DNA of 64,000 nt from Alphaproteobacteria bacterium (GCA_046758065.1 JBHHZM010000001.1:7822-71821); one strand, 5' to 3'. Positions 8,294 through 60,427 are shown, counted from the stretch's first letter. Numbers and translations are program-made. Notes: generated by a model from the sequence alone, not told the origin.

Positions 8294-8299
8294 CGCGCC

Positions 8300-9573: not shown

Positions 9574-10517
9574 TCTTCAGGGGGCGCTTCCTCGACCTCG
9601 GCGTTCTCGTTCAGCGGCGCGGGAATCTCGAGCCCGGGCTGAGGCAACGCCACGACTTCGGCCACCGGCCCCGGGTTGCGCAGCAGGTCGAGCAGGCGGA
9701 TCAGGGTGTCGCGCAGTTGGTGGCGGTGAACCACCATGTCGACCATGCCGTGCTCGAACAGGTACTCGGCGCGCTGGAAGCCGTCGGGCAGCTTCTCGCG
9801 GATGGTCTCTTCGATCACCCGGGCGCCGGCGAAACCGATGACGGCGCCGGGCTCGGCCAGGGTGATGTCCCCGAGCATGGCGAACGAGGCGGTGACCCCG
9901 CCGGTCGTCGGATTGGTGAGCACGACGATGTAGGGCAGCCCGGCCTCCCTGACCTCGTCGATGGCGATGGTGGTGCGCGCCATCTGCATGAGCGAGAGCA
10001 CGCCCTCCTGCATGCGGGCGCCCCCCGAGGCCGGGAAGATGAGCAGCGGCGCCTCCTGCAGGGTGGCGAGCCGCGCCGCGGCGACGATCGCCTCGCCGAC
10101 CGCAACCCCCATCGAGCCGCCCATGAAATCGAAGGTGAAGGCGACGGCGACCACGCCCATGCCGCCAAGCTTGCCGTGCGCAGCGATGATCGCCTCGCTC
10201 TCGCCGGTGCGTCCCTGGGCCTCCTTGAGGCGATCGCCGTAGCGTTTGCTGTCGCGGAATTTGAGCGGATCGGACGGCACCTTGGGAAGCTCGACATGCT
10301 GGTATTCGCCGTCGTCGAACAGGGCCTTTAGCCGCGTCTTCGCGGCGAGGCGCATATGCCAGTCGCAGTGCTGACAAACATACTGGTTGGGCTCCAGATC
10401 GCGATGGAAGATCATCTGTTCGCAGGACGGACATTTCTCCCACAGGTTGTCGGGGATGTCCGGCTTGCGCACCAGCGCCCGGATCTTGGGGCGAACGAAG
10501 CTGGTCAGCCAGTTCAC
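9570..10517 (-). CDS. accD: Acetyl-CoA carboxylase carboxyltransferase subunit beta
   Basis: It has an N-terminal zinc ribbon (CPSCEQ...CQHCDWH) and a carboxyltransferase domain. Confidence 0.95.
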
Positions 10518-10541
10518 GGCCGTCGATCCCGCCCGTTCGCC

Positions 10542-11380
10542 CTAACGGCGCGCCGCCCGCACGCCGCCCGCGAGGTCGGCGACGAGCCCGAGCACGTCGT
10601 CGACCAGCCCGGGTTTGGCGGCGCCGTCGGCGTCGAGGTTGGCGGCGACCCGGTCGACCAGCGCCGAGCCGACCACCGCGGCGTCGGCGACGCGCGCCAC
10701 GGCCGCGGCCCGATCGGGGGTCTTGATGCCGAAGCCGACGGCGACCGGGAGCGCCGTGTGGCGGCGCAGGCGGGCGACCGCCTTGCCCACCAGTTCGGCC
10801 GAGGCGCCCTTCGCGCCGGTGATGCCGGTGATCGAGACGTAGTACATGAAGCCCGAGGTGTTGGCGACCACGGCGGGCAGGCGCGCGTCGTCGGTCGTCG
10901 GCGTGGCGAGCCGGATGAAGTTGACGCCGGCCTCGATCGCCGGCAGGCAGAGTTCCTCGTCCTCCTCGGGGGGCAGGTCGACGACGATCAGTCCGTCGAC
11001 GCCGGCGTCGATGGCGTCGGCGAGGAAGCGCCCGTTGCCGTAGATGTAAATCGGGTTGTAATAACCCATCAGAACGATCGGGGTGTCGGGGTCGTCGGCG
11101 CGGAAGGCGCGCACCATGCCGAGCGTCGCGGCCATCGTTTGCCCCGCCCTGAGCGCGCGCTGTCCCGAAGCCTGAATCGACGGGCCGTCGGCCATGGGAT
11201 CGGTAAACGGCATGCCGATCTCGATCAGATCGGCGCCCGCCGCCGGGAGTCCGCGCAGGATCTCGAGCGACCGGGCCGGATCGGGATCACCCGCCGAGAC
11301 GAAGGTGACGAAACCGCCGCGCCCTTCCTCGGCCAGCGCGGCGAAGCGGCGCGAGACGCGCGCCGTGCCCGAGGCGTCCT

Positions 11381-11384
<4 letters not shown>
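10542..11384 (-). CDS. trpA: Tryptophan synthase alpha chain
   Basis: TrpA motifs are present ([30 protein letters not shown]). The GTG start overlaps the trpB stop by 4 nt. Confidence 0.9.
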
Positions 11385-12592
<1,208 letters not shown>

Positions 12593-15446: not shown

Positions 15447-15728
15447 CTATTCCGCGTTGAGCCGTTCGCGCAACTCCTTGCCGGTCTTGAAATAGGGCAG
15501 ATGCTTGGCCGCCACCTGAACCGATTCGCCGGTGCGCGGATTGCGGCCGACCCGCGCCGCGCGCCGCTTGACCGAGAACGCGCCGAAGCCGCGCAACTCG
15601 ACGCGGTCGCCGCGCGCCAGCGCCGCCGAAATCTCATCGAACACGGTGGTGACGATGCGCTCGACGTCGTGATGATAAAGATGCGGATTGATCTCCGCCA
15701 ATCGCATGATCAGTTGCGATCTCGTCAT
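15447..15728 (-). CDS. ihfB: Integration host factor subunit beta
   Basis: The product reads [33 protein letters not shown]...RNPRTGESV. The start was chosen at MTRSQ. Confidence 0.9.
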
Positions 15729-15824
15729 CAGTGGGCCCCCTCCCTTTGCGTGGACCAGGCACCGCAGCAACCCCGCCGCCGGTTCGCTCGTCTGTTTATC
15801 CCCGATATCGTCGCGACGGCTGCG

Positions 15825-16736
15825 TCACTCGGGAGCAGGGTGCCAAACGGAGATCAGCCCGTCAAGGGTAAGCCGTTCTGAAAGCAACATTTTTCCTGCG
15901 AGCGACGAGATGCGCGGCAACCACTCCTCGGCGGGACGGTTGATCTCCACATCGCGCACGGGCAGGCTTTCCGGAATGTCCTTGGTCTCGGCGAGCCAGA
16001 CGCGCGCGTCCGATTCGTCGCCGATCGCATCAATCAGGTTGCGTTGCAGCGCCTGCCTGCCGGAATAGACGCGCCCGTCGGCGAGTTCGCGGACGCGCCG
16101 TTCGTCGAAGCCGCGGCGCTCGGCGACCATGTCGGTGAACAGCCCATACATGTCATCGATGATCGCCTGTGTGGCGGCGCGCGCCTCATCGGTCAGCGGT
16201 TCGAACGGCGAGGGCGTCGCCTTGAGCGGCGCACTTTTTATGGCCTCGGCCGTCACCCCGAGCTTGCCGAGCAGTCCGGTGATGTCCGTGGTCTGCACCA
16301 GCACCCCGATCGACCCGGTAATGGTGCCCTCGTGGGCGAAGATGCGATCGGCGGCGATCGCCGTCATGTAACCGGCCGACGTCGCGACCGTGCCCATCAC
16401 CGCGACCACGGGCTTTTTGGCCGCGACCTTGAGCAGGGCGTTATAGAGCGATTCACCGCCGACGAACGTGCCGCCCGGGCTGTCGATGCGTACGATCAAG
16501 GCCTTGGCGTGCGGGTCGTCAACGAGATCCGCGAGCGCCTCGATCGTTGCGTCGTCCTCGACGATGAGCCCTCCGACCTCGAGCCGGGCGACGTGGTCGC
16601 GCTCGGTAAGGCGGTCGAAGCGCGAGAACACCGCGAGCACCACCGCGACCAGCGCGACGATAGCGACGACGCGCCACAAGGCGAGCCGCCGCTTCAGACG
16701 GCGTCGGTCGATCAGCAGATCGGCTTCCTGCGTCAT
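15825..16736 (-). CDS. sppA: Signal peptide peptidase SppA (36K type, S49 family)
   Basis: An N-terminal TM segment precedes an S49 domain with the catalytic-serine region (VATSAGYMTAIAAD). Confidence 0.85.
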   Translation of the reverse strand: MTQEADLLIDRRRLKRRLALWRVVAIVALVAVVLAVFSRFDRLTERDHVARLEVGGLIVEDDATIEALADLVDDPHAKALIVRIDSPGGTFVGGESLYNALLKVAAKKPVVAVMGTVATSAGYMTAIAADRIFAHEGTITGSIGVLVQTTDITGLLGKLGVTAEAIKSAPLKATPSPFEPLTDEARAATQAIIDDMYGLFTDMVAERRGFDERRVRELADGRVYSGRQALQRNLIDAIGDESDARVWLAETKDIPESLPVRDVEINRPAEEWLPRISSLAGKMLLSERLTLDGLISVWHPAPE

Positions 16737-16772
16737 GTCGCCCCGGGGCCGCGGCCCGATCCGCGGTTTCCG

Positions 16773-18701
16773 TTATTTCGGCTCGTCGGCGCCGTCCTCC
16801 GCCGGAGCGCTCTTCCCGGCCTCCGGGTCGCCGGCGGGTTCCTCCGCCGCGGCCTCGTCGGGCGAATCCCCGGCGGCGGATGCGTCGCCGGTCGCCTCGG
16901 CGTCCGCATTCTCCTCGACGGCCGTCTCAGCGTCCGCATTCTCCTCGACGGCCGCTTCCTTGTCGCCGTCCTCGGACTTTGTCGCGCGCTGCTTGCTGGC
17001 CCGCGACATCGCCGCGCCGAGTATGTCGCCGAGGCTCGCGCCGCTGTCGGACGAGCCGTATTCGGCCATCGCCTGCTTTTCGTCCTCGATCTCGAGAGAC
17101 TTGATGGAGAGCGTAAGGCGCCGGGCGGCCCGGTCGATGTTGGTGACCTTGGCGTCGACCTTCTCGCCGACGGCGAAACGGTCGGGTCGCTGCTCGCTCC
17201 GCGCGCGCGACAAATCCGACTTGCGAATGAAGCCGACGGCGCCATCGACCGAGACCTCGATGCCGTTGTCGAGCACCGCGCTCACCGTGCCGGTCACCCG
17301 GGCGCCGCGCTTGAGTTTGCTCACGGCGTCGGTGAAGGGGTCGTCGCCGGCGAGCTGCTTGATGCCGAGGCTTACGCGTTCCTTCTCGGTATCGACGTCG
17401 AGCACCCGGGCCTTGACCATGTCGCCCTTCTTGTAGTCCTTGATCGCCTCGTCGCCGGGGCGGTCCCAGGAAATGTCCGACATGTGCACCATGCCGTCGA
17501 TGCCGCCCGACAGGCCGACGAACAGGCCGAACTCGGTGACGTTCTTGACCTCGCCCTCGATATCGTTGCCCGCCGGGTGGCTGTCGAGGAACTCCTGCCA
17601 CGGATTGTCGCGGCACTGCTTGAGTCCGAGGCTGATACGGCGCTTGTTGGGGTCGACGTCGAGCACCATCACCTCGACCTCCTGGCTGGTCGAGACGATC
17701 TTGCCGGGATGGACGTTTTTCTTGGTCCAGCTCATCTCGGAGACGTGCACCAGCCCCTCGACGCCCGGTTCGAGTTCGACGAAGGCGCCGTATTCGGTGA
17801 TGTTGGTGACGCGGCCGAGGAACTTGGTGCCCACCGGATACTTGGACTCGACACCCTCCCAGGGGTCTTCCTCGAGCTGCTTCATGCCGAGGCTGATGCG
17901 CTGGGTCTCGGGATTGAAGCGGATAACCTGAACCTTGACCGTCTGGCCGATCGACAGCGCCTCCGTGGGGTGGCCGATACGCCGCCAGGCGATGTCGGTG
18001 ACGTGCAACAGCCCGTCGACGCCGCCCAGATCGACGAAGGCGCCGTAGTCGGTGATGTTCTTGACCACGCCGTCGAGCACCTGGCCTTCCTTGAGGTTCG
18101 CGATGAGCTCGGTGCGGGCTTCGGCGCGCGCTTCCTCGAGCACGGCGCGGCGCGAGACGACGATGTTGCCGCGACGGCGGTCCATCTTGAGGATGGCGAA
18201 CTCGTGCTCGGCGCCCATCAGCGGCGCGATGTCGCGGACCGGACGGATGTCGACCTGGCTTCCGGGCAGGAACGCCACCGCGCCCGAAAGATCGACCGTG
18301 AAGCCGCCCTTTACCCGGCCGAAGATCGAACCCTTGACGCGTTCGCCCTTCTGAAACGCGGCCTCGAGCTGAATCCAGGCTTCTTCGCGGCGCGCCTTCT
18401 CGCGGCTCAGCACGGCTTCGCCCTGGCGGTTCTCGAGGCGGTCGAGGAAGACCTCGACCTCGTCGCCGACCCTGACTTCCGGAGGCTGTCCGCCTTCGGA
18501 GAATTCCTTGACCGCGACACGGCCTTCGGCCTTGAGTCCGACGTCGATCAGCGCCATGTCGTTCTCGATGGCGATGATGGTGCCCTTGATGACGCGACCT
18601 TCGACGGCGTCCTTTTCCTTGAGCGACTCGGCGAAGAGCGCCGCGAAGTTTTCCTCGGTCGATGGCGTGTCCTCGCCGGACACGGCGCGCTCGTTGGTCA
18701 T
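16773..18701 (-). CDS. rpsA: 30S ribosomal protein S1 with an extended acidic C-terminal tail
   Basis: Six S1 repeats are present. The start was chosen at MTNERAV. The final 60 residues or so are Glu/Asp/Ala-rich. Confidence 0.95.
   Translation of the reverse strand: MTNERAVSGEDTPSTEENFAALFAESLKEKDAVEGRVIKGTIIAIENDMALIDVGLKAEGRVAVKEFSEGGQPPEVRVGDEVEVFLDRLENRQGEAVLSREKARREEAWIQLEAAFQKGERVKGSIFGRVKGGFTVDLSGAVAFLPGSQVDIRPVRDIAPLMGAEHEFAILKMDRRRGNIVVSRRAVLEEARAEARTELIANLKEGQVLDGVVKNITDYGAFVDLGGVDGLLHVTDIAWRRIGHPTEALSIGQTVKVQVIRFNPETQRISLGMKQLEEDPWEGVESKYPVGTKFLGRVTNITEYGAFVELEPGVEGLVHVSEMSWTKKNVHPGKIVSTSQEVEVMVLDVDPNKRRISLGLKQCRDNPWQEFLDSHPAGNDIEGEVKNVTEFGLFVGLSGGIDGMVHMSDISWDRPGDEAIKDYKKGDMVKARVLDVDTEKERVSLGIKQLAGDDPFTDAVSKLKRGARVTGTVSAVLDNGIEVSVDGAVGFIRKSDLSRARSEQRPDRFAVGEKVDAKVTNIDRAARRLTLSIKSLEIEDEKQAMAEYGSSDSGASLGDILGAAMSRASKQRATKSEDGDKEAAVEENADAETAVEENADAEATGDASAAGDSPDEAAAEEPAGDPEAGKSAPAEDGADEPK
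16900..16959. repeat. 30-bp tandem duplication (two copies, 27 of 30 bases identical) inside the rpsA 3' end
   Basis: gcgtccgcattctcctcgacggccgtctca is directly repeated. It encodes AVEENADAE twice in the acidic tail. Confidence 0.6.
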
Positions 18702-21538: not shown

Positions 21539-21614
<76 letters not shown>

Positions 21615-26816: not shown

Positions 26817-27064
26817 CGTGCCGGGGTTCGCCTGCTGACGCGCGGTGGACTCGCAATGACCGCCTGTCCGGCAAAGGCCACTGGTTGCCAAATAGCTCTA
26901 TATACATCGATAATGAATCATCGCTTAAAGGATCACACTGGACTTCTGCTCCTATACATCAGGCGTAGGATGAATCATTCCTCCGAACGAAGAACGCCGT
27001 ATTGCGTGCGACGGTCGGCGGGTCCGCGCTCAAAATCGTAACCGCCCGGGCGACGGGAGGAGCC

Positions 27065-28183
27065 ATGCCCCGTATTCGAGATCTCGGCCTCTGCCGCGGT
27101 GCCCTGCCGGCCGGCGCGCACAACGCCATCACCGACGTCGCCGGCGTGGCGGTGGGACATTGCACCGTCATCGAAGGCGACGGTCGCTGGGAGGGCCGCG
27201 GCCCGTTTCGCACCGGCGTCACGGTGATCCTGCCCCATACCGGCAATCTCTACGAAGACAAGGTCGCGGCCGCGGTCCACGTGATCAACGGCTTCGGCAA
27301 ATACGCCGGGTTCGAGCAGGTGCGCGAAACCGGCAATATCGAGACTCCGATCGCGTTGACCAGCACGCTCAACACGCCGCGCGTCGCTGACGCGCTCATC
27401 ACGCTCGCGATCGAAGAAAACCCGTACATCGGGGTTGGTTTCGAGGTGTCGGGCCGCCAGGGCTACGCCAGCGTCAATCCGGTGGTCGGCGAATGCACCG
27501 ACGGATACTTAAGCGACGTGCACGCGCGGCGCATCGGCGAGACGGAGGTCCGCACGGCGGTATCCGAAGCGACCGCCGGCCCGGTCGCACAAGGCAGCGT
27601 CGGCGGCGGCACCGGTATGAGCTGTTTTGAATGGAAGGGCGGCATCGGCACCGCCAGCCGCGTCGCGCCTGCGAAGGCCGGCGGTTTCACCGTCGGCGTG
27701 CTGGTGCAGACCAATTTCGGCCGCGCTTCCGAACTCGTCGTTTCCGGCGTGCCGGTGGGTCGACACATCGTTCCGCCGAACGCCCGGGCGCAGGACGATG
27801 ACGGCTCGATCATGATCGTGATCGCGACCGATGCGCCGCTCGACGGGCGGCAATTGGAACGGCTGTCGAGGCGCGCCGCATTCGGGCTCGCCCGCACCGG
27901 CAGCACCTGCCACACCGGCAGCGGCGACGTCGTGATCGCCTTCAGCACCGCCTACCGCATCCCCGACCGTCCCGAATCGCCGCTCCTGTCGCGCCCGACC
28001 CTCGCCAACGAACACCGGGTGCTGACCGCGCTCGGTCAGGCGGTCATCGAGGCGGTGGAAGAGGCGATCCTCGACAGCATGTTCATGTCCGGGACGATGG
28101 TCGGGCGCGACGGCAACACGCGCCACGGCCTGCCGGTCGACAACGTGGTCGAGCTGGTAAAGAGCTACCGCTTCGGCGCCTGA
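27065..28183 (+). CDS. P1 (DmpA/OAT, S58) family aminopeptidase / D-esterase-like protein
   Basis: DmpA-family layout is present, with the self-processing region GGGTGMSCFEWKGGIGTAS. The start was chosen at MPRIRDLGL. Confidence 0.8.
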   Translation: MPRIRDLGLCRGALPAGAHNAITDVAGVAVGHCTVIEGDGRWEGRGPFRTGVTVILPHTGNLYEDKVAAAVHVINGFGKYAGFEQVRETGNIETPIALTSTLNTPRVADALITLAIEENPYIGVGFEVSGRQGYASVNPVVGECTDGYLSDVHARRIGETEVRTAVSEATAGPVAQGSVGGGTGMSCFEWKGGIGTASRVAPAKAGGFTVGVLVQTNFGRASELVVSGVPVGRHIVPPNARAQDDDGSIMIVIATDAPLDGRQLERLSRRAAFGLARTGSTCHTGSGDVVIAFSTAYRIPDRPESPLLSRPTLANEHRVLTALGQAVIEAVEEAILDSMFMSGTMVGRDGNTRHGLPVDNVVELVKSYRFGA

Positions 28184-34343: not shown

Positions 34344-36872
34344 CTAATGCCCGCCGACGAGGGCGATCCCGGTCGCCTCGGAAGTGGCGAGCGTCAGCGC
34401 CCGCATGTCCTCGGGCTCGAGGTTGTGCAGCTTGGTCTTGCCGGTGCAGCGCGCCATCATCGACGCCTCGCCCGAGCTCGCCTTGATGATGCCGGCCACC
34501 GCATGGGCGCGCTCCTCCTCGGTGCGGTCGGCGCTGAAGCGGACGCCGTGGTCCGCGGTGATTTCACCGCCCGCGGCGAGCGCCGCCGCGACCCCCAGCA
34601 CCGCCGCGACGCAGCCCAGCCCGATCACCTTGGCCGCGTCGGTGCCCGAACGCACGCCGCCGAAATAAACCAGGTCGATTTCCTCCTCGCGACGGATGCG
34701 GCGGAGGATGCGTATCGTGTCGCGCAGGATGGCGAGATCGGGAGAGGCGGCGAGCTCGGCCCCGGACGCGCCCAGGCGGGCGCTGCCGTCGAGCAGCAGC
34801 ATGTCGAACCCGGCGCCGAGCGCGTAGGGGATCGCCTCTTCGAGTGCTTGCGGCGAAGAAACCGCCAGTCCCAGGATCTGATCGTCGTGAAACCGCCTGA
34901 CGTCGAGCGCGGCGAAGCGCTCGCCCGGCGCGTAGATCAGCGCGGCGGCATTGGCGCTCGGCGCGGTTTCGCCCGGCGCCACGAGCTGCAACCAGGGAAC
35001 GTCGTCGCCGATCGGGCGGACGCCGATGTAGCCGCAACCGCTTTCGGCCAGACCCAGCGCCACGCCCCGGCGCACGTCGTCGGGCGCGTCGTCGAAGCCG
35101 GCGACGAAGAAGGGCTGCGGCAGCGCCATGCCGCCGCCGATCTCGGTGCTCACCTTGCAGGCTTCGCGATAGGGATCGATGACCAGCCGAGACAGGTTCG
35201 CCGGCAGGAAAACGAGATCGTCGAGGGTCGCCGGGCGGTCCTCGGGGAAGGGATTGTCGCGGGGTCGGAGCCGCTTCGCCAGCATCGCCGCCTGTCCGGC
35301 GTGATCGCCCGGGTTGGTGCGCGCCATGGCGAAGATGTCTTCGCGGTGATGCACCGCGTAGTCGGCCGAGCCGGTCTCGGCGTCGCAGCGGTAACAGCGC
35401 GCCGTTTCGCGGCGCGCGGTTTCCCAGTCGTAGGTGGCCTCGATCTCGGGAAAAGCTGCCGGATCCTTGCCCAGGCCGAAGAACTCGGGGTGATGCATCC
35501 CGAGTTTTTCCCAGAGCGGGTCCTGCGCGACCGGAACCCGGCGCGTCCGATAGGGCGTGCGATAGGGCAGCGGATCGTCGCGACCGTCGAGATAAGCCTT
35601 GATGTAATAAGCCGCCCGCTGGCCGTGATGCATCGCCATGACGATGGTCGAGCCGCCGAACGCGCCGTCGCCGGCCGCGAACACGTTGGCGTCGGGCGTC
35701 GTCATGCCGTCGAAGTCGGCGCGCACGCGATCGGCGCCCATCAGGCCGGCGGCGTCGAGGTCTTGGCACGCCGCGTACTGCCCGACCGCCGCGATGACCA
35801 TGCCGCAGGAGATGACGTGCTCGCTGCCCGCGACGTCTACCGGGCGGCGGCGGCCGTCGGCGTCGGGCTCGCCGGCTTCGGTGCGGACGCAGTGGAGTGC
35901 GAGGCCGTTGCCCTGCTGCGAAACCGAAACCTGACGCGTGTTGTAGATGAACTCGATGCCTTCCGCGATCGCGCCTTCGAGTTCGATCTTGCGCGCCGGA
36001 ATTTCCTCGGGACCGCGGCGATAGAGCACCTTGACCTGCGCGCAGCCCGGCAGTCGCCGGGCGACCCGGCAGGCGTCCATCGCCACGTCGCCGCCGCCGA
36101 TGACGACGACCGTCTCCGGCATCTCGGGGCGTGCGCCCGCGTTGACCCGGCGCAGGAACTCGACCCCGTCGACGATGCGCGGGTCGTCCTCGCCGGGGAT
36201 GTTCATGCGCTTGCCCCACCAGGCGCCGATGGTGAGAAGCACGGCGTCGTGCCGCGTCTTGAGCTCTTCGAGCGTCACCCCGGCGCCGAGCGCCGTGTTG
36301 AAGTGGAAATGAAGGCCCGGGCAGCGTTTGGTCAACCGCTCGATGTCTTCGTCGATGATGCCGGGCGGCAGACGGAACGCCGGGATTCCCCAGCTCATCA
36401 TGCCGCCGGGGCGGTCGGTCATCTCGTAGACATGGACCTCGAAGCCGGCGACGCAGAGATCGTGCGCGGCGACCAGCCCGGCGGGACCGGCGCCGACGAC
36501 GCCCACCGTCTCGTTGCGCGTGATCGCCGCCGCCGGCGGCTCGTAGTCGCGACCGAGCTTGTCCATGACGAAGCGCTTGAGATTGCGTATCTGCAACGGA
36601 CCGTCGCTCGCGGTGCGCCGGCAGGCGGGTTCGCACGGCGCGTCGCACACCCGGCCGCAGATCGAGCTGAACGGATTGGTCGCGGTGATCGCCTCGAACG
36701 CCTCGTGGAACTTCCCTTCCCAGATATAGGCGATGTACGAAGGCGCGTCGGTGCCGACGGGACAGGCGACCTGGCACGGCGCCGGGACGAAGTGGGGATC
36801 GGCGGTGTCGTCGGCGAAGTCTTCGGGCGCGAACGTCTCGGGCGTATCGTCGGGCATTCGATCGTCCGGCAT
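34344..36872 (-). CDS. GltD-like NAD(P)H-dependent FAD oxidoreductase (glutamate synthase small-subunit family) fused to a C-terminal glutamate-synthase FMN-domain-like TIM-barrel region
   Basis: The N-terminal part has a 4Fe-4S cysteine pair plus dinucleotide-binding motifs (VGVVGAGPAGL, VVVIGGGDVAMD). The C-terminal 360 aa or so resemble the distal half of the GltS FMN domain (LLLDGSARLGASG ... VYFGGVRSGTDAAKVIGLGC). Confidence 0.8.
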   Translation of the reverse strand: MPDDRMPDDTPETFAPEDFADDTADPHFVPAPCQVACPVGTDAPSYIAYIWEGKFHEAFEAITATNPFSSICGRVCDAPCEPACRRTASDGPLQIRNLKRFVMDKLGRDYEPPAAAITRNETVGVVGAGPAGLVAAHDLCVAGFEVHVYEMTDRPGGMMSWGIPAFRLPPGIIDEDIERLTKRCPGLHFHFNTALGAGVTLEELKTRHDAVLLTIGAWWGKRMNIPGEDDPRIVDGVEFLRRVNAGARPEMPETVVVIGGGDVAMDACRVARRLPGCAQVKVLYRRGPEEIPARKIELEGAIAEGIEFIYNTRQVSVSQQGNGLALHCVRTEAGEPDADGRRRPVDVAGSEHVISCGMVIAAVGQYAACQDLDAAGLMGADRVRADFDGMTTPDANVFAAGDGAFGGSTIVMAMHHGQRAAYYIKAYLDGRDDPLPYRTPYRTRRVPVAQDPLWEKLGMHHPEFFGLGKDPAAFPEIEATYDWETARRETARCYRCDAETGSADYAVHHREDIFAMARTNPGDHAGQAAMLAKRLRPRDNPFPEDRPATLDDLVFLPANLSRLVIDPYREACKVSTEIGGGMALPQPFFVAGFDDAPDDVRRGVALGLAESGCGYIGVRPIGDDVPWLQLVAPGETAPSANAAALIYAPGERFAALDVRRFHDDQILGLAVSSPQALEEAIPYALGAGFDMLLLDGSARLGASGAELAASPDLAILRDTIRILRRIRREEEIDLVYFGGVRSGTDAAKVIGLGCVAAVLGVAAALAAGGEITADHGVRFSADRTEEERAHAVAGIIKASSGEASMMARCTGKTKLHNLEPEDMRALTLATSEATGIALVGGH

Positions 36873-36873
36873 G

Positions 36874-38823
36874 TCAGCCGGCTTTCCGCAGCGTCTGCTC
36901 GCGATACTCGGGCGCGTAGGGCAGCCGGGTGATCGCCGCGGCTTCGGGCGTCAGCGCGACGAGGTCGTCGCGGTTGAGCCGGGTCACGTCGTCGTAGCCC
37001 AGCGCCCGGGTCAGCGCGGCGATCTGCCAGCGTACGCCCTCGAGGAAACGGTGGATGTGGCGCGCCTCGATCTGCGGCTTGTAGCGCTTCTCGTGTTCGG
37101 GATCCTGGGTCGCGATGCCGGTGACGCACTGGCCGACGTGACACTGCATGCAGGCGATGCAGCCGCCGGCGATGATCGTCGAGGTGCCGAACGCCACCGC
37201 GTCGGCGCCGAGGCAGAGCGCCTTGACGGCGTCGACGCCGTCGCGCAGCCCGCCCATGAGGACGATTTCGATCTTGTCGCGGCAGCCGATCTCGTCGAGC
37301 GCGTCGAGCGCCTCGATGATCGCCGCGATGGTGGGAATGCCGACGTATTCCATGACCTCGGCGCCGCCGGCCCCGGTCGAGCCCTGCATGCCGTCGAGCT
37401 CGACGAAATCGAAGCCGTCCTTGACCGCGATCTTGATGTCGTCGCGAATCCGCCCCGCCCCGAGCTTGACGCTCACCGGCAGCCGGTAGCCCGTCGCCTC
37501 GCGGAACTCCTCGACCTTGATGACCAGATCGTCGGCGCCGAGGATGTCGGGGTGGCGCGACGGCGAGCGCAGGTCGATCCCGGCCGGAATGCCGCGGATG
37601 GCGGCGAGCTCCTCGGTCACCTTCTTGGCCATGAGCTGGCCGCCGAAGCCGGGCTTGGCGCCCTGGCTGATGTAGATTTCGAGCCCGTCGGCGCGATTCA
37701 TGTCGTGGATGTTCCAGCCCAGCCGGCCGCCGAGGCACTGGAAGACGAGCTGTTTGGCGGCGTCGCGCTGGGCGTCGCTCATGCCGCCTTCGCCGGTGTT
37801 CTCCGCGATCCCGGCGAGGCTCGACGCGATGCCGATGGCCTGTTTGGTCGAGCGGCTGAGCGCGCCGTAGCTCATCGGCGCGATCATCACCGGCATCGAG
37901 AGATCGAGCGGCTTGGCGCCGTTCTTGCCGCCGACCAGGGTGTGCATCCGGACCTGCGAGACCGGGTCGGCCGCCGCGCCGGCGTGCGAGACGTCCCTGC
38001 GGAAGGCGAGGTCCGAGAGATGCGGCAACTCGCGCGCGCCGCCGTAGCCGCGGACGCGATAGCGGCCGGTCTGCGACTTGATGTGGATGTCTTCCTGAAC
38101 CTTGGCGTTCCAGTAATCCGACGCGCCCGAGAAGGCGAAGAACGGCATGCTGCGGACCTGATGTTCGACGGTGCCGTATCGCAGCTTCTTGCCGGCGTTG
38201 ACGAGTTTTTGGAAGCGGCCCTTGAAGGCGATGCCATAGCGCTCGAGGAATTCCCTGATGCTCTCGATCTCCTCGGCGGCGATGTCGGTCAGCATGGCGT
38301 CGGAGCCGAGCTCGCGCAGGTTGCCGCCGACGAAAATCTCGCCGCCGGTCATGTCCTCGCCGACCCGCTCGCCGGAATCGCCGAGGATGATGATGCGCCC
38401 GCCGTACATCATGTAGCCGGCCATGAAATTGGCGTTGCCGGCGCAGCACAGCGTTCCCGCCTTCATCACCTGACCGGCGCGCGAGCCGATGTTGCCGTGC
38501 ACCACGACCTCGGCGCCGCGGATGGCGACGCCGGCGATCGCGCCGGCGTTGCCGCCGACCACCACCGAGCCGCGGTACATGTTGTCGGCGAGTCCCCAGC
38601 CGGCGTTGTTGTCGATGACGAAGCGCGGTCCGTCGGTCAGACCGGCGCAGAAATAGCCCGCCGAGCCGCGCACCCGCACGGTGATCGGATCGGCCAGTCC
38701 GACGCCGATATGGTGGCGCGCGTCCGGGTTGACGACCTCGACGTCCTCGCCCCGGGCGCCGCAGGCGCGGATGATCTCGTTGGCCTCGCGGACCGGAATT
38801 TTCGCCAGGTCTAGCGTGACCAT
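36874..38823 (-). CDS. Fused GlxC-GlxD homologue (glutamate synthase GXGXG domain plus FMN-binding glutamate-synthase domain)
   Basis: The N-terminal 230 aa carry GXGXG-domain repeats (GSAGYFCAG ... VVVGGNAG ... VVVHGNIG ... LCCAGNANF). They are followed in frame by the FMN/central domain (QGAKPGFGGQL ... ELDGMQGSTGAGG ... IVLMGGLRDGVD ... CIACMQCHVGQC). The start ATG at 38823 overlaps glxB by 13 nt. The Arg-rich 297-aa N-terminal extension in the track is rejected. Confidence 0.8.
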   Translation of the reverse strand: MVTLDLAKIPVREANEIIRACGARGEDVEVVNPDARHHIGVGLADPITVRVRGSAGYFCAGLTDGPRFVIDNNAGWGLADNMYRGSVVVGGNAGAIAGVAIRGAEVVVHGNIGSRAGQVMKAGTLCCAGNANFMAGYMMYGGRIIILGDSGERVGEDMTGGEIFVGGNLRELGSDAMLTDIAAEEIESIREFLERYGIAFKGRFQKLVNAGKKLRYGTVEHQVRSMPFFAFSGASDYWNAKVQEDIHIKSQTGRYRVRGYGGARELPHLSDLAFRRDVSHAGAAADPVSQVRMHTLVGGKNGAKPLDLSMPVMIAPMSYGALSRSTKQAIGIASSLAGIAENTGEGGMSDAQRDAAKQLVFQCLGGRLGWNIHDMNRADGLEIYISQGAKPGFGGQLMAKKVTEELAAIRGIPAGIDLRSPSRHPDILGADDLVIKVEEFREATGYRLPVSVKLGAGRIRDDIKIAVKDGFDFVELDGMQGSTGAGGAEVMEYVGIPTIAAIIEALDALDEIGCRDKIEIVLMGGLRDGVDAVKALCLGADAVAFGTSTIIAGGCIACMQCHVGQCVTGIATQDPEHEKRYKPQIEARHIHRFLEGVRWQIAALTRALGYDDVTRLNRDDLVALTPEAAAITRLPYAPEYREQTLRKAG

Positions 38824-39716
38824 GTGTCGTAGCTTCCCGGCGGCGGCTCGCGGGTGTCGAGCGCCTGGCCCGGGAACAGGCGGTTGAGCGAGACCTCTTC
38901 CGAGGCGATGGCGATGAGGTCGTCGTTCTCGTACATGATCATCGGCTTGGCGGCGAGACGGTCCTTGGCGTAGCCGATCTCGTCCTTGGTCGAAACCAGG
39001 AAGGAAAAGGTGCCGTCGAGGTCGTCGATCGACTGCCCGAGCGCCTGCCTGAGCGCCACGCCGTGGGCCAGCTTGTCGGCGAGGTAGACGGCGATGAGCT
39101 CGGAATCGTTGTCGGTGGTGAACTCGAAGCCGCGGCGCTCGAGGCGGCGGCGCATCTTCCAGTAGTTGGTGATCTGGCCGTTGTGGACGATGGCGACGTC
39201 GGCGAATCCGGTCGCCCAGAAGGGATGCGAGGCTTCGGGCTTGACCTCCGATTCGGTTGCCAGCCGGACGTGACCGAGCCCGTGGGTGCCGCGGTAGTCG
39301 CCGACATGATAACGCGCATCGACGTCGTGGGCGCTGCCGACGTCCTTGAGGATTTCGAGGCTTTCGCCGATCGACACCACCTTGGCGGCGTGCTCGACCG
39401 CGTAGGCGAAGCGCTGGAGATCGCCCGCGATGCGCACCACGGCGCGATAGACGTCGCCGACGTGTTCCTCCTCGACGATCTCGGCGTCGTGGTCGGCGAG
39501 CACCGCGCGGATGCGGCGCACCGTCGCGTCCGCTTCCCCGCCCCGGCCGACGAAAAAGCGCAGCATGAGCTCGCCGTCGCGTTCCTCGCCGTAAAGCGCG
39601 AAGCCGGTCGAATCGGGGCCGCGGTGCTGGCAGCCGTCGAGCATGTCGATGAGCGCCTTGCCGGTCGCGAGATTGCTTCCGGCGTTCTTGAACAGGATAC
39701 CGGCGATGCCGCACAT
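38811..39716 (-). CDS. glxB: Class II glutamine amidotransferase domain protein (GlxB / glutamate synthase domain-1 homologue)
   Basis: The N-terminal nucleophile Cys (MCGIAG) and a Ntn GATase_2 fold are present. It is the first gene of the glxB / glxCD / gltD-like operon on the minus strand. Confidence 0.85.
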   Translation of the reverse strand: MCGIAGILFKNAGSNLATGKALIDMLDGCQHRGPDSTGFALYGEERDGELMLRFFVGRGGEADATVRRIRAVLADHDAEIVEEEHVGDVYRAVVRIAGDLQRFAYAVEHAAKVVSIGESLEILKDVGSAHDVDARYHVGDYRGTHGLGHVRLATESEVKPEASHPFWATGFADVAIVHNGQITNYWKMRRRLERRGFEFTTDNDSELIAVYLADKLAHGVALRQALGQSIDDLDGTFSFLVSTKDEIGYAKDRLAAKPMIMYENDDLIAIASEEVSLNRLFPGQALDTREPPPGSYDTWSR

Positions 39717-39924
39717 GATGTCTTCCTTCCCGGCGCGCTTCGCGATGGCCGCAGATTAGCCCCGGCGCGGCAATCTTTCAATGTCTGAATAAATGTTTCA
39801 TGTCAGGAATATAACCGCCCCATCGCCCGCGCATGCACGCCGGCTCACAGCTGCGGCTAAGATCGATGAGCGATGATCCGGGTTGAGATCGGCGCGGGGG
39901 AACGTCCGGATGACGGTTGCCGGA

Positions 39925-41451
39925 TCAAAGTTTCCAGCGACGAGCGATTCTTTTCTTGCGGTCTTTAATAGCCTTTTCCACCTTTTTTTTATACGCGTCG
40001 ATGGTGCCAACCCGACGTTTCGCTTCGCGGGCCAACTGAGTGTCCAAGCGCAGGTCCACGGCCTCATCCCCGAGATCCCACTCCTTGTTATCGGGCTCGA
40101 TCCCGAGGTTCCATTCGATCGAAGCGGCGACCGAAAGGTAGGGCGCCTCCGTAAATTTCTCGAGGTGGCTGCTTTCAGCAGGGCCCTCCCCCTCAAGATT
40201 GGCCCATTCGCCAGAAAACGCAAAATGAGGCAATTTTATAGATAGATATTTTTTACATGAAGCGGGCGTTACGAATTCGTAATAATCACTCCATTTTTCT
40301 TCCGCTTTAAATAGCTTAGTAAACTCCTTTTCTTTAAAATTAAAAAAACCTAATGGATAATTGTCCAATTTCGTAATGCAGGAATCCCAATAAGTAATAG
40401 GATATGACATAGCACGAGCATTAACTCGCACCTCGAAGAAATTGCCATCCTTTAACTGCCCTCTAAAAATGAGCGCATGGCATATTTGAAAGGCAGCCCT
40501 GGGTGGCTCACTCTCCCCAACCGGAACGATGGTGAGCCAGATTTCGCGGACTCGCCGGGCTGTCACGTCTTTCGCCTCTATCACGCCGTCCGGAAGGTTG
40601 CGAGGATTACGATCGTAACGGTCGAACGGGGGATGTGTGCCTTTGAGAATCACGGTGGCATCTTCGACAATGAACCGCGCTGATGCCAAGACGTCGCCCA
40701 TCACCTGATAGATCAGGATGCCCGGCACCCAGCAAAGGTCGTCTAACCCAGAATAGGATTGATCATGGATATAATCAAATTCACCGTAACGACTATCTCC
40801 GGGATCAATTCCTATAATTGTTCCTTCTTTATCGAATAGAACACTGTTGTTCATTATGAACGAAAAATATTCATCCAGAGAATATTTTTTCGCAACCCAA
40901 TCGCACATGCCGCGCAACATGTCGCTGATGGTATGGCACCATTCCGCTTCGCTGCTTTGGATACTCTTATCCGCGGACAGATAATCCGTACCTTCAAAGA
41001 GTCGGAGAAGAAATGCATCTTCTTGCTTGTCAAGCGCCTTGGCCGCCTCTTGCGCAATTTTAATATAACCACGCGTACTCTGGGTAAGTTTTCTCCTTCT
41101 TTCTTTTTTCTTTTCTTCCGGAAGATCAGAGTCGAGCGCATATTGTGGCAGACGCTTGGTCGAGTCTTCCGGTTTGCCGTATCCGGCGGCATGTAAAATC
41201 TCCGATTTTCGGATGCCGCCTCGCTCGACTTGTTCAAGGATGGCCCAGAGATTCTCGGCGACAACCCCTCTCTCTCGGGGTTTGTTCATTCGGGGACGTT
41301 GTTCAAGGGCTGCCTTCAGGCTCTGACGGCGCTGGTCCTGATATGCGGCGTGTTGCTTTTCTTCTTCCTCGCGCCGTTTAGCCCTTTTTGGGCGTTCTTC
41401 CGGCGTGGACGAACCATGACGCGAGGAAAAGTCGATAACGTTGTCGGTCAT
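39925..41451 (-). CDS. Hypothetical protein (508 aa) of unknown function in the low-GC islet
   Basis: The N-terminal 60 aa are a charged K/R/E-rich stretch (PEERPKRAKRREEEEKQ). A globular region follows that I cannot assign to any family. The AT-rich codon usage is foreign to the host. The ATG at 41451 overlaps the upstream gene's stop (ATGA). Confidence 0.6.
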   Translation of the reverse strand: MTDNVIDFSSRHGSSTPEERPKRAKRREEEEKQHAAYQDQRRQSLKAALEQRPRMNKPRERGVVAENLWAILEQVERGGIRKSEILHAAGYGKPEDSTKRLPQYALDSDLPEEKKKERRRKLTQSTRGYIKIAQEAAKALDKQEDAFLLRLFEGTDYLSADKSIQSSEAEWCHTISDMLRGMCDWVAKKYSLDEYFSFIMNNSVLFDKEGTIIGIDPGDSRYGEFDYIHDQSYSGLDDLCWVPGILIYQVMGDVLASARFIVEDATVILKGTHPPFDRYDRNPRNLPDGVIEAKDVTARRVREIWLTIVPVGESEPPRAAFQICHALIFRGQLKDGNFFEVRVNARAMSYPITYWDSCITKLDNYPLGFFNFKEKEFTKLFKAEEKWSDYYEFVTPASCKKYLSIKLPHFAFSGEWANLEGEGPAESSHLEKFTEAPYLSVAASIEWNLGIEPDNKEWDLGDEAVDLRLDTQLAREAKRRVGTIDAYKKKVEKAIKDRKKRIARRWKL

Positions 41452-41819
41452 TGCCAGAGCCTCCGATGCCTTTGCCGCCAGCGATTCAACCGGCCGGGGC
41501 TGTGCCGCGGACGACGGCGTCGCGCCCGTTGGCCATGGACATGCAAGACCGTGACGATATGGCCGGTCTCTTCGCAGCGAATCACCACGAGGTTTGCGGC
41601 CCGCTCGACCAGACCGGGCGCATAGCCATCCGCCATAAGGGATGCGGTCTTCCGGCGGCTGATCTGCATCGAAATGCATCCGCGCCCCGCATTCAGCTCG
41701 ATGTCGCCGTGTTCGTCGATCAATTGTACCGCCTCGGACGGGATTCCGCGCTGTTGAAGCCGCCTGAGCGCGTGCCGCGTCATATGCGAGTGAGCGTTGA
41801 AGTATTCCATGTCCTGCAT
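41448..41819 (-). CDS. DUF4258-like small protein (toxin-like family), first gene of the islet operon
   Basis: MEYFNAHSHMTRHALRRLQQRGIPSEAVQLI ... GHIVTVLHV fits the DUF4258 pattern (F..HA..Rm.eRgI ... iITV) as I recall it. Confidence 0.55.
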   Translation of the reverse strand: MQDMEYFNAHSHMTRHALRRLQQRGIPSEAVQLIDEHGDIELNAGRGCISMQISRRKTASLMADGYAPGLVERAANLVVIRCEETGHIVTVLHVHGQRARRRRPRHSPGRLNRWRQRHRRLWQ

Positions 41820-42182
41820 CCCTCTCGTTGTCATGGCGGGATTGTCCTACACTCCAATCAACGGCGCATTCCAAAACTGGAAATTATAGAGGAATTTTAT
41901 TAGGAAGAAAATTTAGAATTCGACGGTATATCACGAGAAGATATTAGGTATATATCTGGCGCTTCGTATGGAACCGCTAAGCGCGACGGTTCGTAGACGG
42001 GCATCTCGCCGCTCGAACCGACCGGGATTACGGACATCTTGATTTTTGTGACCGTTGGCCGGTGCGGCGGGCATTCGGGCCAGCCGCCGTCATGCTGTCG
42101 AAGATCATGGGTTTGAGGTGTATATTTTCGTGGTTGCTCTCTCAAACGTTGCGGGGTCTCGGAAATGCGGCGACACGATACG

Positions 42183-42685
42183 ATGACGGTGGGGAACGCC
42201 GCCGAGGCTTTGGCCGTCCGTCTCCTGAAGGAGCACGGCTTCGACGTCGTGAACCTGAACGAGCGCCGGCGGAACTATCCCGTGTTCGACTTGCTCGCGC
42301 GCAAGCAGGGGCGCGACATCAGGATTTCGGTCAAATGCGCGCGGGCCAAGCGCGAACTGCGACTCGGTAAGCCGCAAACCCTTGAGAAAATGCCCGACGA
42401 GGGTGTCGTGATGGCGTCCTGCCCGTCGCCAAGGGCGAAGAGATCGACCTCGACGGCGGTCGTTATGAGCTATGGATCATCCCCGGCAACGTCGCGCGCG
42501 ACGAGGGCCTGAAAATGCATCGGCCTTATGCCGCGGCGCGCCCGGGCAGCGCCAATCATTCAGTGATGGTCAAGGACAAGGTGGACCGGAGCCCGCATAC
42601 GCGCTCGGGAGCGGTGTTCAGGAGTTGGCGCGACCGTTTCCAGGATGCGTGGCAGGTTTTGGAGCCCGGATACCAGCACGCATGA
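42183..42685 (+). pseudogene. Frameshifted PD-(D/E)xK nuclease-like (Mrr-cat/YraN-like) gene remnant
   Basis: Frame A reads MTVGNAAEALAVRLLKEHGFDVV ... VFDLLARKQGRDIRISVKCA up to about 42413. The sequence continues in the -1 frame (VLPVAKGEEIDLDGGRYELWIIPGN ...) to a TGA at 42683-42685. Confidence 0.4.
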
Positions 42686-42891
42686 TTCCAGCCGACTCGC
42701 GCGTTCCGTTCATGAGGATCGTTCGGCGGGTTTGAACGCCCCATCGCCCGGTGCTTGCGTATCCCTCATCGCCGCCGGTTGATCCAGGTCAAGTCGGGCG
42801 GGGGTGGTTGGCGTCACACTCCAGTTCGTGGGAGTCCGCGTCGTCATGCGGGGTTCCGCGCCGCGAGGCGCTCGAAAACGGGGACCGCGCC

Positions 42892-59014: not shown

Positions 59015-60427
59015 TCAGAGCGCGGGTTTCGAGCCGGCCCAGGGGCGCACGCGTTCGAGCGCCGCGCCGACCCGGAGCACGCCGAGATCGTCATACCGCC
59101 GGCCGACGATCTGCAATGCCGTGGGCAGGCCGTCGCGCGAGAAGCCCGAAGGCACCGTCAGCGCCGGGCACTGGCTGACGAAGTTGAATACGCTCGTCAT
59201 GTCGTAGCCGTGATAGCGGCCCTCGGCGTCCTCCTCATCGAACTGGTCGTCCGAGCCGCCGACCGGCCGGGCGGGCAGCGCCATGGTGGGGCAGAGCAGG
59301 GCGTCGAAGCGTTCGAGAATCGGGGCCAGCGCCTGCCACTGACGGGTGCGCACGAACTCTAGCCGCTTGAAATCGACCGCGTTCATGGCCAGAGCGGTGT
59401 CCATCAGCCTGACCACGCCGGGATCCATGCGGTCGCGCCAACCTTCGAGGTGCTGGCCGAAGAAGCTGGCGAGATAGACGCTCCAGTGCGCGACCCAGGC
59501 GTCGACGACCTCGCGGCTCCAGCCGAGTTCAACCTCCTCCACCCGGGCGCCGGCATCCGCAAGCGCCGCGGCGGCGGCGCGCGTATTGGCCGCGACGTCG
59601 TCGTCGAGCGCGTAGAATCCGAGGTCGAGCGAAAGGGCGAGCCTGAGGCCCGAGACATCGCCGGGCGGTGGAACGACCACGTCGAGCGGGGGGCTTAGCG
59701 TCTGGATGTCGCGTTCGTCGGGACCCTGGGTCACGGCGAGGAAAAGCGCGACGTCGGCGACCGTGCGCCCGAGTGGTCCGAAGTGCGACAGCGCGTCGAA
59801 CTGGCTGGGCAGGATCTCGAAAGGGATGCGCCCGAAGCTCGGCTTGAGGCCGACCACGCCGCAGAGCGCCGCCGGTATGCGCACCGAGCCGCCCATGTCC
59901 GAACCCTCGGCGAGCGGGACGCAACCGGTCGCCACCGCAGCACCCGAGCCGCCCGAGGAGCCACCGGGCGAGCGCTCCGGGTTCCAGGGATTGCGGGTAA
60001 CGCCCCAGAGCGGGCTTTCGGTGAACGACGAATGGGCGAACTCGGGCGTTGTTGTCTTGCCCACGACGATAGCGCCGGCGGCCTCGAGCTTTTCGACGAT
60101 CACCGCGTCGCGCTCGGGCACCCAATGCTGGTAGACGCGCGAGCCCATGGTCGTGGTCTTGCCTTTGGTCGGGGTCATGTCCTTGATGGCGACGGGAACG
60201 CCGTGGAGCGATCCCAGCGGCGCGCCCGCGGCGACCGCCTGTTCGGCGGCGCGGGCCTTGGCCAGGGCCTCGTCGGGGTAGGTGAAGCAGAAACAGTTGA
60301 GCTTCGGATTGACCTCGTCGATGCGGGCGAGACTGTTCTCGATCACCGCGACGGGCGAAAGGGCGCCTTCGGCGATGCGTCGCGCGAGTTCCGTGGCCGG
60401 GGTATAGGCGAGCGCGAGGTCGGTCAT
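59015..60427 (-). CDS. Amidase (amidase-signature family)
   Basis: The amidase signature GGSSGGSGAAVA and a Ser-cisSer-Lys triad context are present. Confidence 0.85.
   Translation of the reverse strand: MTDLALAYTPATELARRIAEGALSPVAVIENSLARIDEVNPKLNCFCFTYPDEALAKARAAEQAVAAGAPLGSLHGVPVAIKDMTPTKGKTTTMGSRVYQHWVPERDAVIVEKLEAAGAIVVGKTTTPEFAHSSFTESPLWGVTRNPWNPERSPGGSSGGSGAAVATGCVPLAEGSDMGGSVRIPAALCGVVGLKPSFGRIPFEILPSQFDALSHFGPLGRTVADVALFLAVTQGPDERDIQTLSPPLDVVVPPPGDVSGLRLALSLDLGFYALDDDVAANTRAAAAALADAGARVEEVELGWSREVVDAWVAHWSVYLASFFGQHLEGWRDRMDPGVVRLMDTALAMNAVDFKRLEFVRTRQWQALAPILERFDALLCPTMALPARPVGGSDDQFDEEDAEGRYHGYDMTSVFNFVSQCPALTVPSGFSRDGLPTALQIVGRRYDDLGVLRVGAALERVRPWAGSKPAL

Follow-up and report, generated by a model that had tools for sequence, protein, structure and literature searches.

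A widespread three-gene operon with fused glutamate synthase-type domains, a candidate NAD(P)H-driven variant of N-methylglutamate synthase

A 64,000-nucleotide stretch of DNA from an Alphaproteobacteria bacterium (GCA_046758065.1 JBHHZM010000001.1:7822-71821; hereafter the window, to which all coordinates refer) contains an operon of three intact, tightly packed open reading frames (ORFs) that runs on the minus strand from 39716 to 34344. The three genes, denoted here A, B and C, encode an amidotransferase, a synthase and a reductase related to the components of glutamate synthase and N-methylglutamate synthase, with two domain fusions. The operon is laid out as follows.

38811..39716, minus strand: gene A, 301 amino acids (aa), GlxB/MgsA-type class II (N-terminal nucleophile, Ntn) glutamine amidotransferase (GATase), recognized by Pfam GATase_6/7
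36874..38823, minus strand: gene B, 649 aa, fusion of a GXGXG beta-helix domain (GlxC/MgsB-like) and a flavin mononucleotide (FMN) 'synthase' domain (GlxD/MgsC/GltB-like)
34344..36872, minus strand: gene C, 842 aa, fusion of a GltD-like NAD(P)H flavoprotein and a degenerate TIM barrel of the MgsC type
39717..39924, minus strand: upstream intergenic region of the operon, bordering a low-GC island

At third codon positions, the three ORFs have a GC content of 0.88-0.90, compared with about 69% GC for the window as a whole. Because of this value and of their strong conservation across genomes, the ORFs are not chance reading frames. Direct reading of the sequence shows a 13 nt overlap of A and B, ATGGTCACGCTAG, and a gap of 1 nt between the stop codon of B and the start codon of C, by which C is predicted to be translationally coupled to B. 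A putative ribosome-binding site, GGAAGGAAG, lies 5 nt ahead of the ATG of gene A. A promoter scan of the region upstream of gene A found no sigma-70-like site, and the promoter and terminator scan of the operon as a whole was uninformative. In an Rfam scan of the window, nothing matched close to the operon, the sole match being a tRNA at 21539-21611 on the plus strand.

The ORF coordinates and the 13 nt overlap had been given in the original prediction, which was made from the sequence alone, and both were confirmed, the former by ORF calling. Its central claim, that GXGXG and FMN domains are joined in a single 649-aa protein, likewise holds, as the Pfam matches to both lie in one frame with no stop between them and not in separate GlxC and GlxD proteins. 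Direct reading and the lengths of the homologues rule out any hidden stop or frameshift in B or C, and a longer, 946-aa ORF for gene B was rejected as an over-extension, since the ATG at 38823 yields a length in agreement with the 649-652 aa of all 120 best homologues. The domain assignments that had been proposed for all three genes are supported by Pfam and NCBIfam matches.

The protein encoded by gene A begins with MCGIAG, with the catalytic Cys (C2) directly after Met1, matches GATase_6/7 (E 1e-19) and is 36% identical over its full length to MgsA of Aminobacter. Residues C2, R32, R151, H178-N179-G180 and D204 are invariant among 61 homologues and are common to MgsA. Judging from these residues, A retains the complete catalytic set: the Ntn nucleophile and, at the glutamine site, Arg, Asn-Gly and Asp. 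The MCG start, C2, R151, N179-G180 and D204 are Ntn amidotransferase features that A shares with the two-subunit glutamate synthase GltBD.

Gene B carries the synthase chemistry and the following features.

38308..38736, minus strand: GXGXG domain of B (residues 30-172; Pfam PF01493, E 1.3e-15)
36994..37920, minus strand: FMN/2-oxoglutarate synthase domain of B (residues 302-610; Pfam PF01645 Glu_synthase, E 3e-93)
37126..37161, minus strand: predicted Fe-S motif of B, C555-x2-C558-x2-C561-x4-C566 (CxxCxxCxxxxC), from alignment

The GXGXG domain resembles FwdC and the C-terminal domain of GltB and is 35% identical to MgsB, whereas the FMN domain is 40% identical to Aminobacter MgsC and about 33% identical to the FMN domains of GltB. 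In the alignment to the structures 7MFM and 1LLW, residues E345, Q387, K390, Q396 and R410 of B correspond to the catalytic residues E903, Q969, K972, Q978 and R992 of GltS (Synechocystis numbering). All five are invariant in 120 homologues of B. Three cysteines of B, C555, C561 and C566, align with C1137, C1143 and C1148 of 1LLW, the ligands of its 3Fe-4S cluster (C-x5-C-x4-C). The fourth Cys of the motif, C558, is extra relative to GltS, and all four are invariant in the same 120 homologues.

The comparison with five classical MgsC sequences, taken from annotated mgsABC-gmaS clusters on plasmids, separates two groups of features. All five have the same residues as B at the equivalents of Q969, K972 and R992 but carry D in place of E903 and M in place of Q978, where B keeps E and Q as in GltB. 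Furthermore, all five contain a 16-aa insertion in the Fe-S loop that is missing from B, and none of the five, when aligned with B, has the Fe-S cysteines. At the position of GltS E975, F or L is found in B and G in MgsC, and at that of S1011 both have G; because these two positions differ, the pocket of B is not identical to that of GltB. On sequence grounds, B appears to be Mgs-like overall and GltB-like in exactly the features for electron receipt from a reductase. Because MgsC is devoid of the Fe-S motif, B, unlike MgsC, seems equipped to take external electrons.

Such a reductase would be the product of gene C, which consists of four parts.

36558..36782, minus strand: N-terminal Fe-S domain of C, Fer4_20 (residues 31-105; Pfam PF14691, E 7e-22)
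35583..36521, minus strand: flavin adenine dinucleotide (FAD) and NAD(P)H Rossmann modules of C (residues ~118-430; Pyr_redox_2 at 123-417)
35217..35582, minus strand: linker of C (residues 431-552), with an invariant RCYRCDAETG motif
34347..35216, minus strand: degenerate 'pseudo-synthase' TIM barrel of C (residues 553-842), MgsC-like at both ends

The Fer4_20 domain holds six invariant Cys (C33, C37, C72, C76, C80 and C84) and, with six Cys only, the number of clusters that it carries is uncertain. The Rossmann motifs GAGPAG and GGGDVAMD...YRR lie in a confidently modelled region (predicted local distance difference test score, pLDDT, 80-96), and the second of them, by analogy with known GltD and NfnB enzymes, suggests NADPH as the reductant. 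NCBIfam GltD-type models cover residues 31-500. Among solved structures, the best relatives of the N-terminal half are NfnA of NfnABC (9BOV, 9N5U) and StnA (8OH5), followed by NfnB (4YLF) and GltD (6S6S); by sequence and structure, the NfnA and StnA matches to residues 31-500 reach E values of 6e-88 to 1.5e-80. C shares with NfnA and StnA (9BOV, 9N5U, 8OH5) the reduced Cys pattern of Fer4_20 and the region after the GltD core. The linker, which is highly conserved but modelled with low confidence, partially matches the region of 9BOV that follows the GltD module. The formate dehydrogenase-like extension and the HydBC-like partners of those transhydrogenase systems (NfnABC and StnABC) are both missing here.

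The C-terminal half of C yields only an FMN_dh match below threshold in Pfam, yet its origin is recognizable by more sensitive comparisons. A profile of residues 550-842 matches the FMN domain of B with an hhalign probability of 97.8% (E 9e-13), and in blastp searches the barrel is closer to Aminobacter MgsC (E 9e-17) than to B (1e-9). Motifs specific to MgsC stand at both ends of the barrel (DDLxFLxAxxSR...YRExC and ARxCGK..LHNLEPEDL..A...G.PLAG), and the FMN-phosphate motif GG(V/I/L)RSGTD, here GGVRSGTDAAK, is invariant. The loops that bear the catalytic Glu, Gln, Lys and Arg have been deleted, as has the Fe-S loop; TGEGG, QGAKPG, the Arg at the position of R992 and loop 4 are all missing. 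AlphaFold nevertheless predicts a confident (beta/alpha) barrel at residues ~575-806 (pLDDT 83-96). The barrel thus looks like a copy of a synthase domain of the MgsC type that has lost its catalytic function, and it clearly illustrates the recruitment of a pseudo-enzyme domain as a subunit module. That C carries an extra degenerate FMN barrel was part of the original prediction and is upheld by the hhalign and blastp matches, which establish the similarity of its C-terminus to the GltS FMN domain. The predicted size of about 360 aa requires correction: the barrel itself spans about 290 aa (residues 553-842) and follows a linker of about 120 aa.

Beyond the GltD core, C is most conserved in the segments RCYRCDAETG, FLPANLSRLVIDPYREAC and EASMMARCTGKT, and its C-terminal half contains four invariant Cys (C493, C496, C572 and C809). 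These same three segments are the least confidently modelled by AlphaFold. High conservation combined with low model confidence would be expected of inter-subunit interfaces or of a cofactor site.

An alternative assignment of the C-terminal domain of C, as a stand-in for the central domain of GltB (PF04898), was rejected, since the domain gives no PF04898 signal and is homologous to the FMN synthase barrel, with MgsC as the closest relative.

The architecture recurs far beyond this genome. A genome scan with one genome per species identified at least 80 loci, and gene neighbourhoods were analysed over 82. In every locus with enough sequence among these 82, A is followed by the fused B and the fused C, with two exceptions, one of which lacks A (L001) whereas A is displaced in the other (L015). 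The carriers include Alphaproteobacteria, Gammaproteobacteria (Arenicellales, Woeseia and Ectothiorhodospiraceae), Planctomycetota, Latescibacterota, Gaiellaceae and Akkermansiaceae, as well as a cultured organism, Aestuariivirga litoralis KCTC 52945, in which the genes downstream of the operon are unrelated (DsbB, a hydrolase and TctABC; locus L047). CP179197.1, OZ244839.1 and OZ244154.1 are examples of complete genomes with A-B-C. The fusion is present in every one of the best 120 relatives of B, which are nearly all 647-654 aa long and are 81-100% identical, and B remains 65-88% identical across all genomic contexts. C has thousands of database relatives; throughout the best 120 clusters, the length is 803-869 aa and the identity 67-100%, and a profile of the C-terminal half of C retrieves 793 clusters at 50% identity. 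The family is annotated in the source databases as 'FAD-dependent oxidoreductase', 'glutamate synthase-related protein' or 'alpha-hydroxy-acid oxidizing protein' and, occasionally, as 'methylamine-glutamate N-methyltransferase subunit C'. The plasmid collection contained only classical, unfused glxBCD/mgsABC genes, with every match below 60% identity, and a full-text search of the literature brought up no account of an Mgs/Glx enzyme that is fused or coupled to GltD.

The fusions are therefore not peculiar to this genome but mark a conserved, unnamed and widespread family. This family is a new variant inside the glutamate synthase/N-methylglutamate synthase superfamily and not a new kind of system. 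The original prediction described the fusions as unusual and advised a search for them in other genomes. They are unusual relative to the characterized enzymes, but across genomes they are the rule, the architecture being present in essentially all of the at least 80 species-level genomes and in hundreds of protein clusters.

Variants of this theme were also observed among the relatives. Dead barrels of about 360 aa occur as stand-alone proteins (P0302, P0311, P0317 and P0336). One protein is a B-C read-through fusion (P0245, 1486 aa), and another joins B to the dead barrel without the GltD part (P0249, 1031 aa). The locus that lacks gene A belongs to a complete chromosome of a metagenome-assembled genome.

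The nearest characterized relative of the operon is MgsABC, also known as GlxBCD (Aminobacter aminovorans pAA01 and Methylobacterium extorquens DM4), in which the gene order, GATase, GXGXG and FMN domain, is the same as here. A, the GXGXG domain and the FMN domain are, respectively, 36%, 35% and 40% identical to Aminobacter MgsA, MgsB and MgsC, and the C barrel carries the end motifs specific to MgsC, all in keeping with the genes of the glxB and glxC-glxD type that had originally been recognized. There are also clear differences: MgsB and MgsC are separate proteins but are fused in B, and MgsC has D and M, the 16-aa insertion and no Fe-S Cys where B has E and Q, four Cys and no insertion. Furthermore, MgsABC comes without a dedicated reductase, whereas here an invariant third gene, C, combines a GltD-like reductase with a dead MgsC-like barrel.

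GltBD of Azospirillum brasilense (6S6S, 1EA0) and Bacillus subtilis (7MFM) and the ferredoxin-dependent GltS of Synechocystis (1LLW) provide the second point of reference. The same four functional modules are common to GltBD and A-B-C, namely, the Ntn amidotransferase, the FMN synthase domain with 3Fe-4S ligands, the GXGXG domain and the GltD-type FAD/Fe-S/NADPH subunit. Unlike in GltBD, these modules are distributed over three proteins, the GXGXG domain precedes the FMN domain instead of following it, the amidotransferase is of the short GlxB type, the Fe-S motif of B includes the extra fourth Cys, and C, with its extra barrel, resembles NfnA/StnA more closely than GltD. The PF04898 central domain was not detected in A, B or C (Pfam, E <= 0.01). 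Finally, dihydropyrimidine dehydrogenase (DPD; pig, 1H7W) combines, like C, N-terminal Fe-S, FAD and NADPH modules and then an FMN-type TIM barrel in one chain, and Foldseek aligned about 800-990 columns of C to it. In DPD, however, the barrel has a dihydroorotate dehydrogenase (DHODH)-type site with an active-site Cys loop and is followed by a C-terminal 2x[4Fe-4S] ferredoxin domain, whereas the barrel of C is of the GltS/MgsC type, is stripped of its catalytic loops and ends the protein. The relationship of C to DPD is an analogy of domain layout, not membership.

The observed domain content, conserved catalytic and cofactor residues, conserved architecture and gene neighbourhoods are those from which we infer complex formation, an electron path, a substrate and NADPH specificity. 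In the best reading of the sequences, A, B and C would together form one multi-subunit flavo-iron-sulfur enzyme of the glutamate synthase superfamily. Its mechanistic class is very probably that of glutamate synthase (GOGAT), an NAD(P)H-driven machine made of GlxBCD/MgsABC-type parts. In the first step of the mechanism that we propose, A would cleave a gamma-glutamyl amide at its N-terminal Cys and thereby free an amine, which would reach the FMN site of B and add to 2-oxoglutarate to yield an imine. FMNH2 would then reduce this imine. The electrons would originate from NAD(P)H and reach the Fe-S cluster of B by way of FAD and the Fe-S clusters in the GltD-like half of C. The dead barrel of C would most likely serve as a docking or scaffold module and might still bind a flavin or a phosphate ligand.

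It is also conceivable that A and B alone form a redox-neutral N-methylglutamate synthase like MgsABC, with C a separate oxidoreductase that merely shares the operon. The classical enzyme indeed needs no reductase subunit (PMC6237917), but three observations make this arrangement very improbable. An Fe-S motif that is missing from MgsC has been gained or retained in B; C always comes after B, the two being 0-100 nt apart in about 75 loci, and both B-C and B-barrel fusions exist (P0245, P0249); and an MgsC-derived, catalytically empty domain on C would be sensible only within the same complex.

The choice of the amine donor depends largely on gene neighbourhoods. A gene similar to glutamine synthetase (GS) lies beside the operon, usually directly after C, in 25 of the 82 loci and in 15 of the 44 that are well flanked, that is, with at least 3 kb on either side of the operon. 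The products of 22 of these 25 genes are 59-67% identical to Aminobacter GmaS, and their best solved match is Rhodovulum GmaS (7CQL, E 8e-189). GmaS differs from glutamine synthetase by two defining substitutions, in which the ammonium-binding Asp50' is replaced by Ala and the flap Glu by Trp (PMC7948447), and both signatures, the former within FAGFA, were found in 20 of the 21 GmaS-like ORFs checked. Five loci contain mgdA, at 70-75% identity, some of them along with mgdB and mgdC, and in these five A-B-C is the sole mgsABC-like set and occupies the position of mgsABC. The carriers that combine A-B-C with gmaS and mgd (Terasakiella, Rhodoblastus, Aestuariivirga relatives) are metagenome-assembled genomes. 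In 15 loci an XRE-cupin regulator is encoded that shares 43-56% identity with its counterparts in classical mgsABC-gmaS clusters. An Amt-type transporter (13 loci) and a class I amidotransferase (eight loci) are both also found in the classical clusters. Thus, gmaS, mgdABCD, the XRE-cupin regulator, Amt and the class I GATase are neighbours that many related loci have in common with MgsABC.

Because of this gene context in related loci, we favour gamma-glutamylmethylamide (GMA), the product of GmaS, as the donor. In that case, A-B-C would act as an NAD(P)H-dependent N-methylglutamate synthase and catalyse GMA + 2-oxoglutarate + NAD(P)H -> N-methylglutamate + glutamate, a reading to which we assign a probability of roughly 45%. 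Together with GmaS, it would constitute a 'methyl-GOGAT' cycle analogous to GS/GOGAT. A GOGAT-like reaction of GMA and 2-oxoglutarate to N-methylglutamate and glutamate has been proposed for N-methylglutamate synthase, with the reductant still unknown (PMC6237917). As originally stated, the substrate is not evident from the sequence alone, but the field of candidates can be narrowed by the redox features of B and by the methylamine and GMA neighbourhoods.

Several facts weigh against GMA as the donor. B has the GltB residues at both active-site positions where MgsC differs (E903->D, Q978->M), and the GltB-type E and Q fit ammonia or glutamine chemistry at least as well as they would fit that of methylamine. 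Classical MgsABC yields N-methylglutamate without a GltD-like partner (PMC6237917). In this window, no gmaS, mgd, amt or XRE-cupin gene neighbours the operon, and the sole GS-like gene, at 6695-8293 on the plus strand, shares just 26% identity with GmaS. Of the 44 well-flanked loci, 18 have none of these neighbours, and five of the 18 carry a LarA-like gene.

Because of the GltB-like E and Q in B and of the orphan context in the window, a glutamine-dependent GOGAT stays a serious rival. Under this interpretation, the operon would encode a plain alternative NAD(P)H-dependent glutamate synthase, a split and rearranged GltBD isozyme that converts glutamine, 2-oxoglutarate and NAD(P)H to two glutamates, and a neighbouring GlnT/GmaS-type ligase and Amt would provide glutamine or ammonium. 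B agrees with GltB at all five positions, among them the two at which MgsC deviates, and in its Fe-S ligands; every glutaminase residue is present in A, and C is homologous to GltD. Thirteen loci have an Amt gene in the vicinity, and an adjacent methylamine gene is lacking in this window, as in 18 of the 44 well-flanked loci. In view of the opposing evidence, however, we regard this main rival as less likely than the GMA reading. The adjacent ligases have the GmaS-specific substitutions, with the ammonium-binding Asp gone (PMC7948447), A-B-C are the only synthase-like genes of the mgdABCD clusters, and the regulator is orthologous to that of mgsABC clusters. B and the C barrel are nearer to MgsC than to GltB (40% versus about 33% identity for B; E 9e-17 to MgsC for the barrel), and neither glnB/glnK nor type I glnA was seen next to the operon.

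The LarA-like gene (Lar_N + LarA_C, nickel-pincer racemase family) lies directly downstream of C in seven of the 82 loci (L002, L006, L010, L017, L018, L054 and L069), which suggests a second, unexplained functional context. This mixture of contexts bears on a further alternative, in which the mechanism is GOGAT-like but the substrate is another gamma-glutamyl-alkylamide, derived from ethylamine or other small amines, or another 2-oxo acid, so that a different N-alkyl amino acid would be made, possibly varying by clade, for example, in the LarA-linked one. GmaS enzymes take several small amines (PMC7948447), the pocket of B differs from that of GltB (E975 to F/L, S1011 to G), and besides the seven LarA-like genes and the eight class I GATase genes, there are dimethylformamidase genes near the operon that lacks A. 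Opposed to this are the invariance of the 2-oxoglutarate-binding equivalents of K972 and R992, the 65-88% conservation of B across contexts, which argues for one single reaction, and the rank of GmaS as the commonest specific neighbour. On balance, substrates of this kind appear improbable.

If GMA is the donor, the family may, as a tentative extension, be the missing 'true GOGAT analogue' of methylamine assimilation, an NAD(P)H-driven GMA:2-oxoglutarate methylaminotransferase that is paired with GmaS and forms a complex held together by a pseudo-enzyme copy of the synthase. Methylamine nitrogen would thereby enter new glutamate skeletons with no free ammonia, and the route would be widespread, extending over marine and soil Alpha- and Gammaproteobacteria, Gaiellaceae, Planctomycetota and others. 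It is also conceivable that the pseudo-enzyme copy binds a second flavin, or that the four invariant Cys in the C-terminal half of C form a composite Fe-S site there.

Methylamine is a significant source of nitrogen and carbon in the ocean, and gmaS serves as a marker for its consumers (PMC7948447). The reaction that follows GmaS has yet to be resolved biochemically. According to the literature, it is not known which redox cofactor N-methylglutamate synthase uses, and the GOGAT-like reaction proposed for it needs a reductant (PMC6237917). The A-B-C family is a natural test case for this step, being an Mgs-like enzyme with an Fe-S motif in its FMN subunit and an NAD(P)H reductase supplied by the same operon. 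Should it instead be a glutamine-dependent GOGAT, it would represent a second, compact type of glutamate synthase in many uncultured lineages. Current annotations of nitrogen metabolism overlook the A-B-C genes because these are labelled generically, for example, as 'FAD-dependent oxidoreductase'.

Two of the related loci, both linked to gmaS, contain a second, stand-alone FMN-domain gene, 41-43% identical to B, upstream of amt (21-1094 in L032 and 80-1342 in L077). This arrangement resembles that of SAR11, for which gltB2 and amt appear close together in a locus-tag table (PMC3870248). The dimethylformamidase genes mentioned above (DMFA2_C and DMF_alpha, N,N-dimethylformamidase) lie at 8039-12541 and 15572-18514 of locus L001, a few kb from the operon and accompanied by a branched-chain-type ABC transporter.

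In the window itself, the operon is flanked by unrelated genes, on one side by genes of the CMD family, TetR, SDR and acyl-CoA ligase types, and on the other side by the low-GC island and then a thiamine pyrophosphate (TPP) enzyme, with none of the gmaS or mgd neighbours of MgsABC. The island, at 39925-42700 directly upstream of gene A, has a GC content of about 0.52 compared with about 0.68 around it and may be a foreign insertion that parted the operon from its original neighbours. Its 649-aa ORF at 39925-41874 on the minus strand has no Pfam match, and a 115-aa ORF at 42165-42512 weakly matches SMEK_N. The GS-like ORF at 6695-8293 on the plus strand (532 aa) combines an N-terminal XRE-type helix-turn-helix (HTH; residues 3-51) with a glutamine synthetase catalytic domain (residues 195-528, E 1e-101) and is either an HTH-GS fusion or an ORF with an over-extended start. 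Elsewhere in the window, and not adjoining the operon, are genes for an S58 (DmpA-type) aminopeptidase at 27002-28183 on the plus strand and an amidase-signature enzyme at 59015-60427 on the minus strand.

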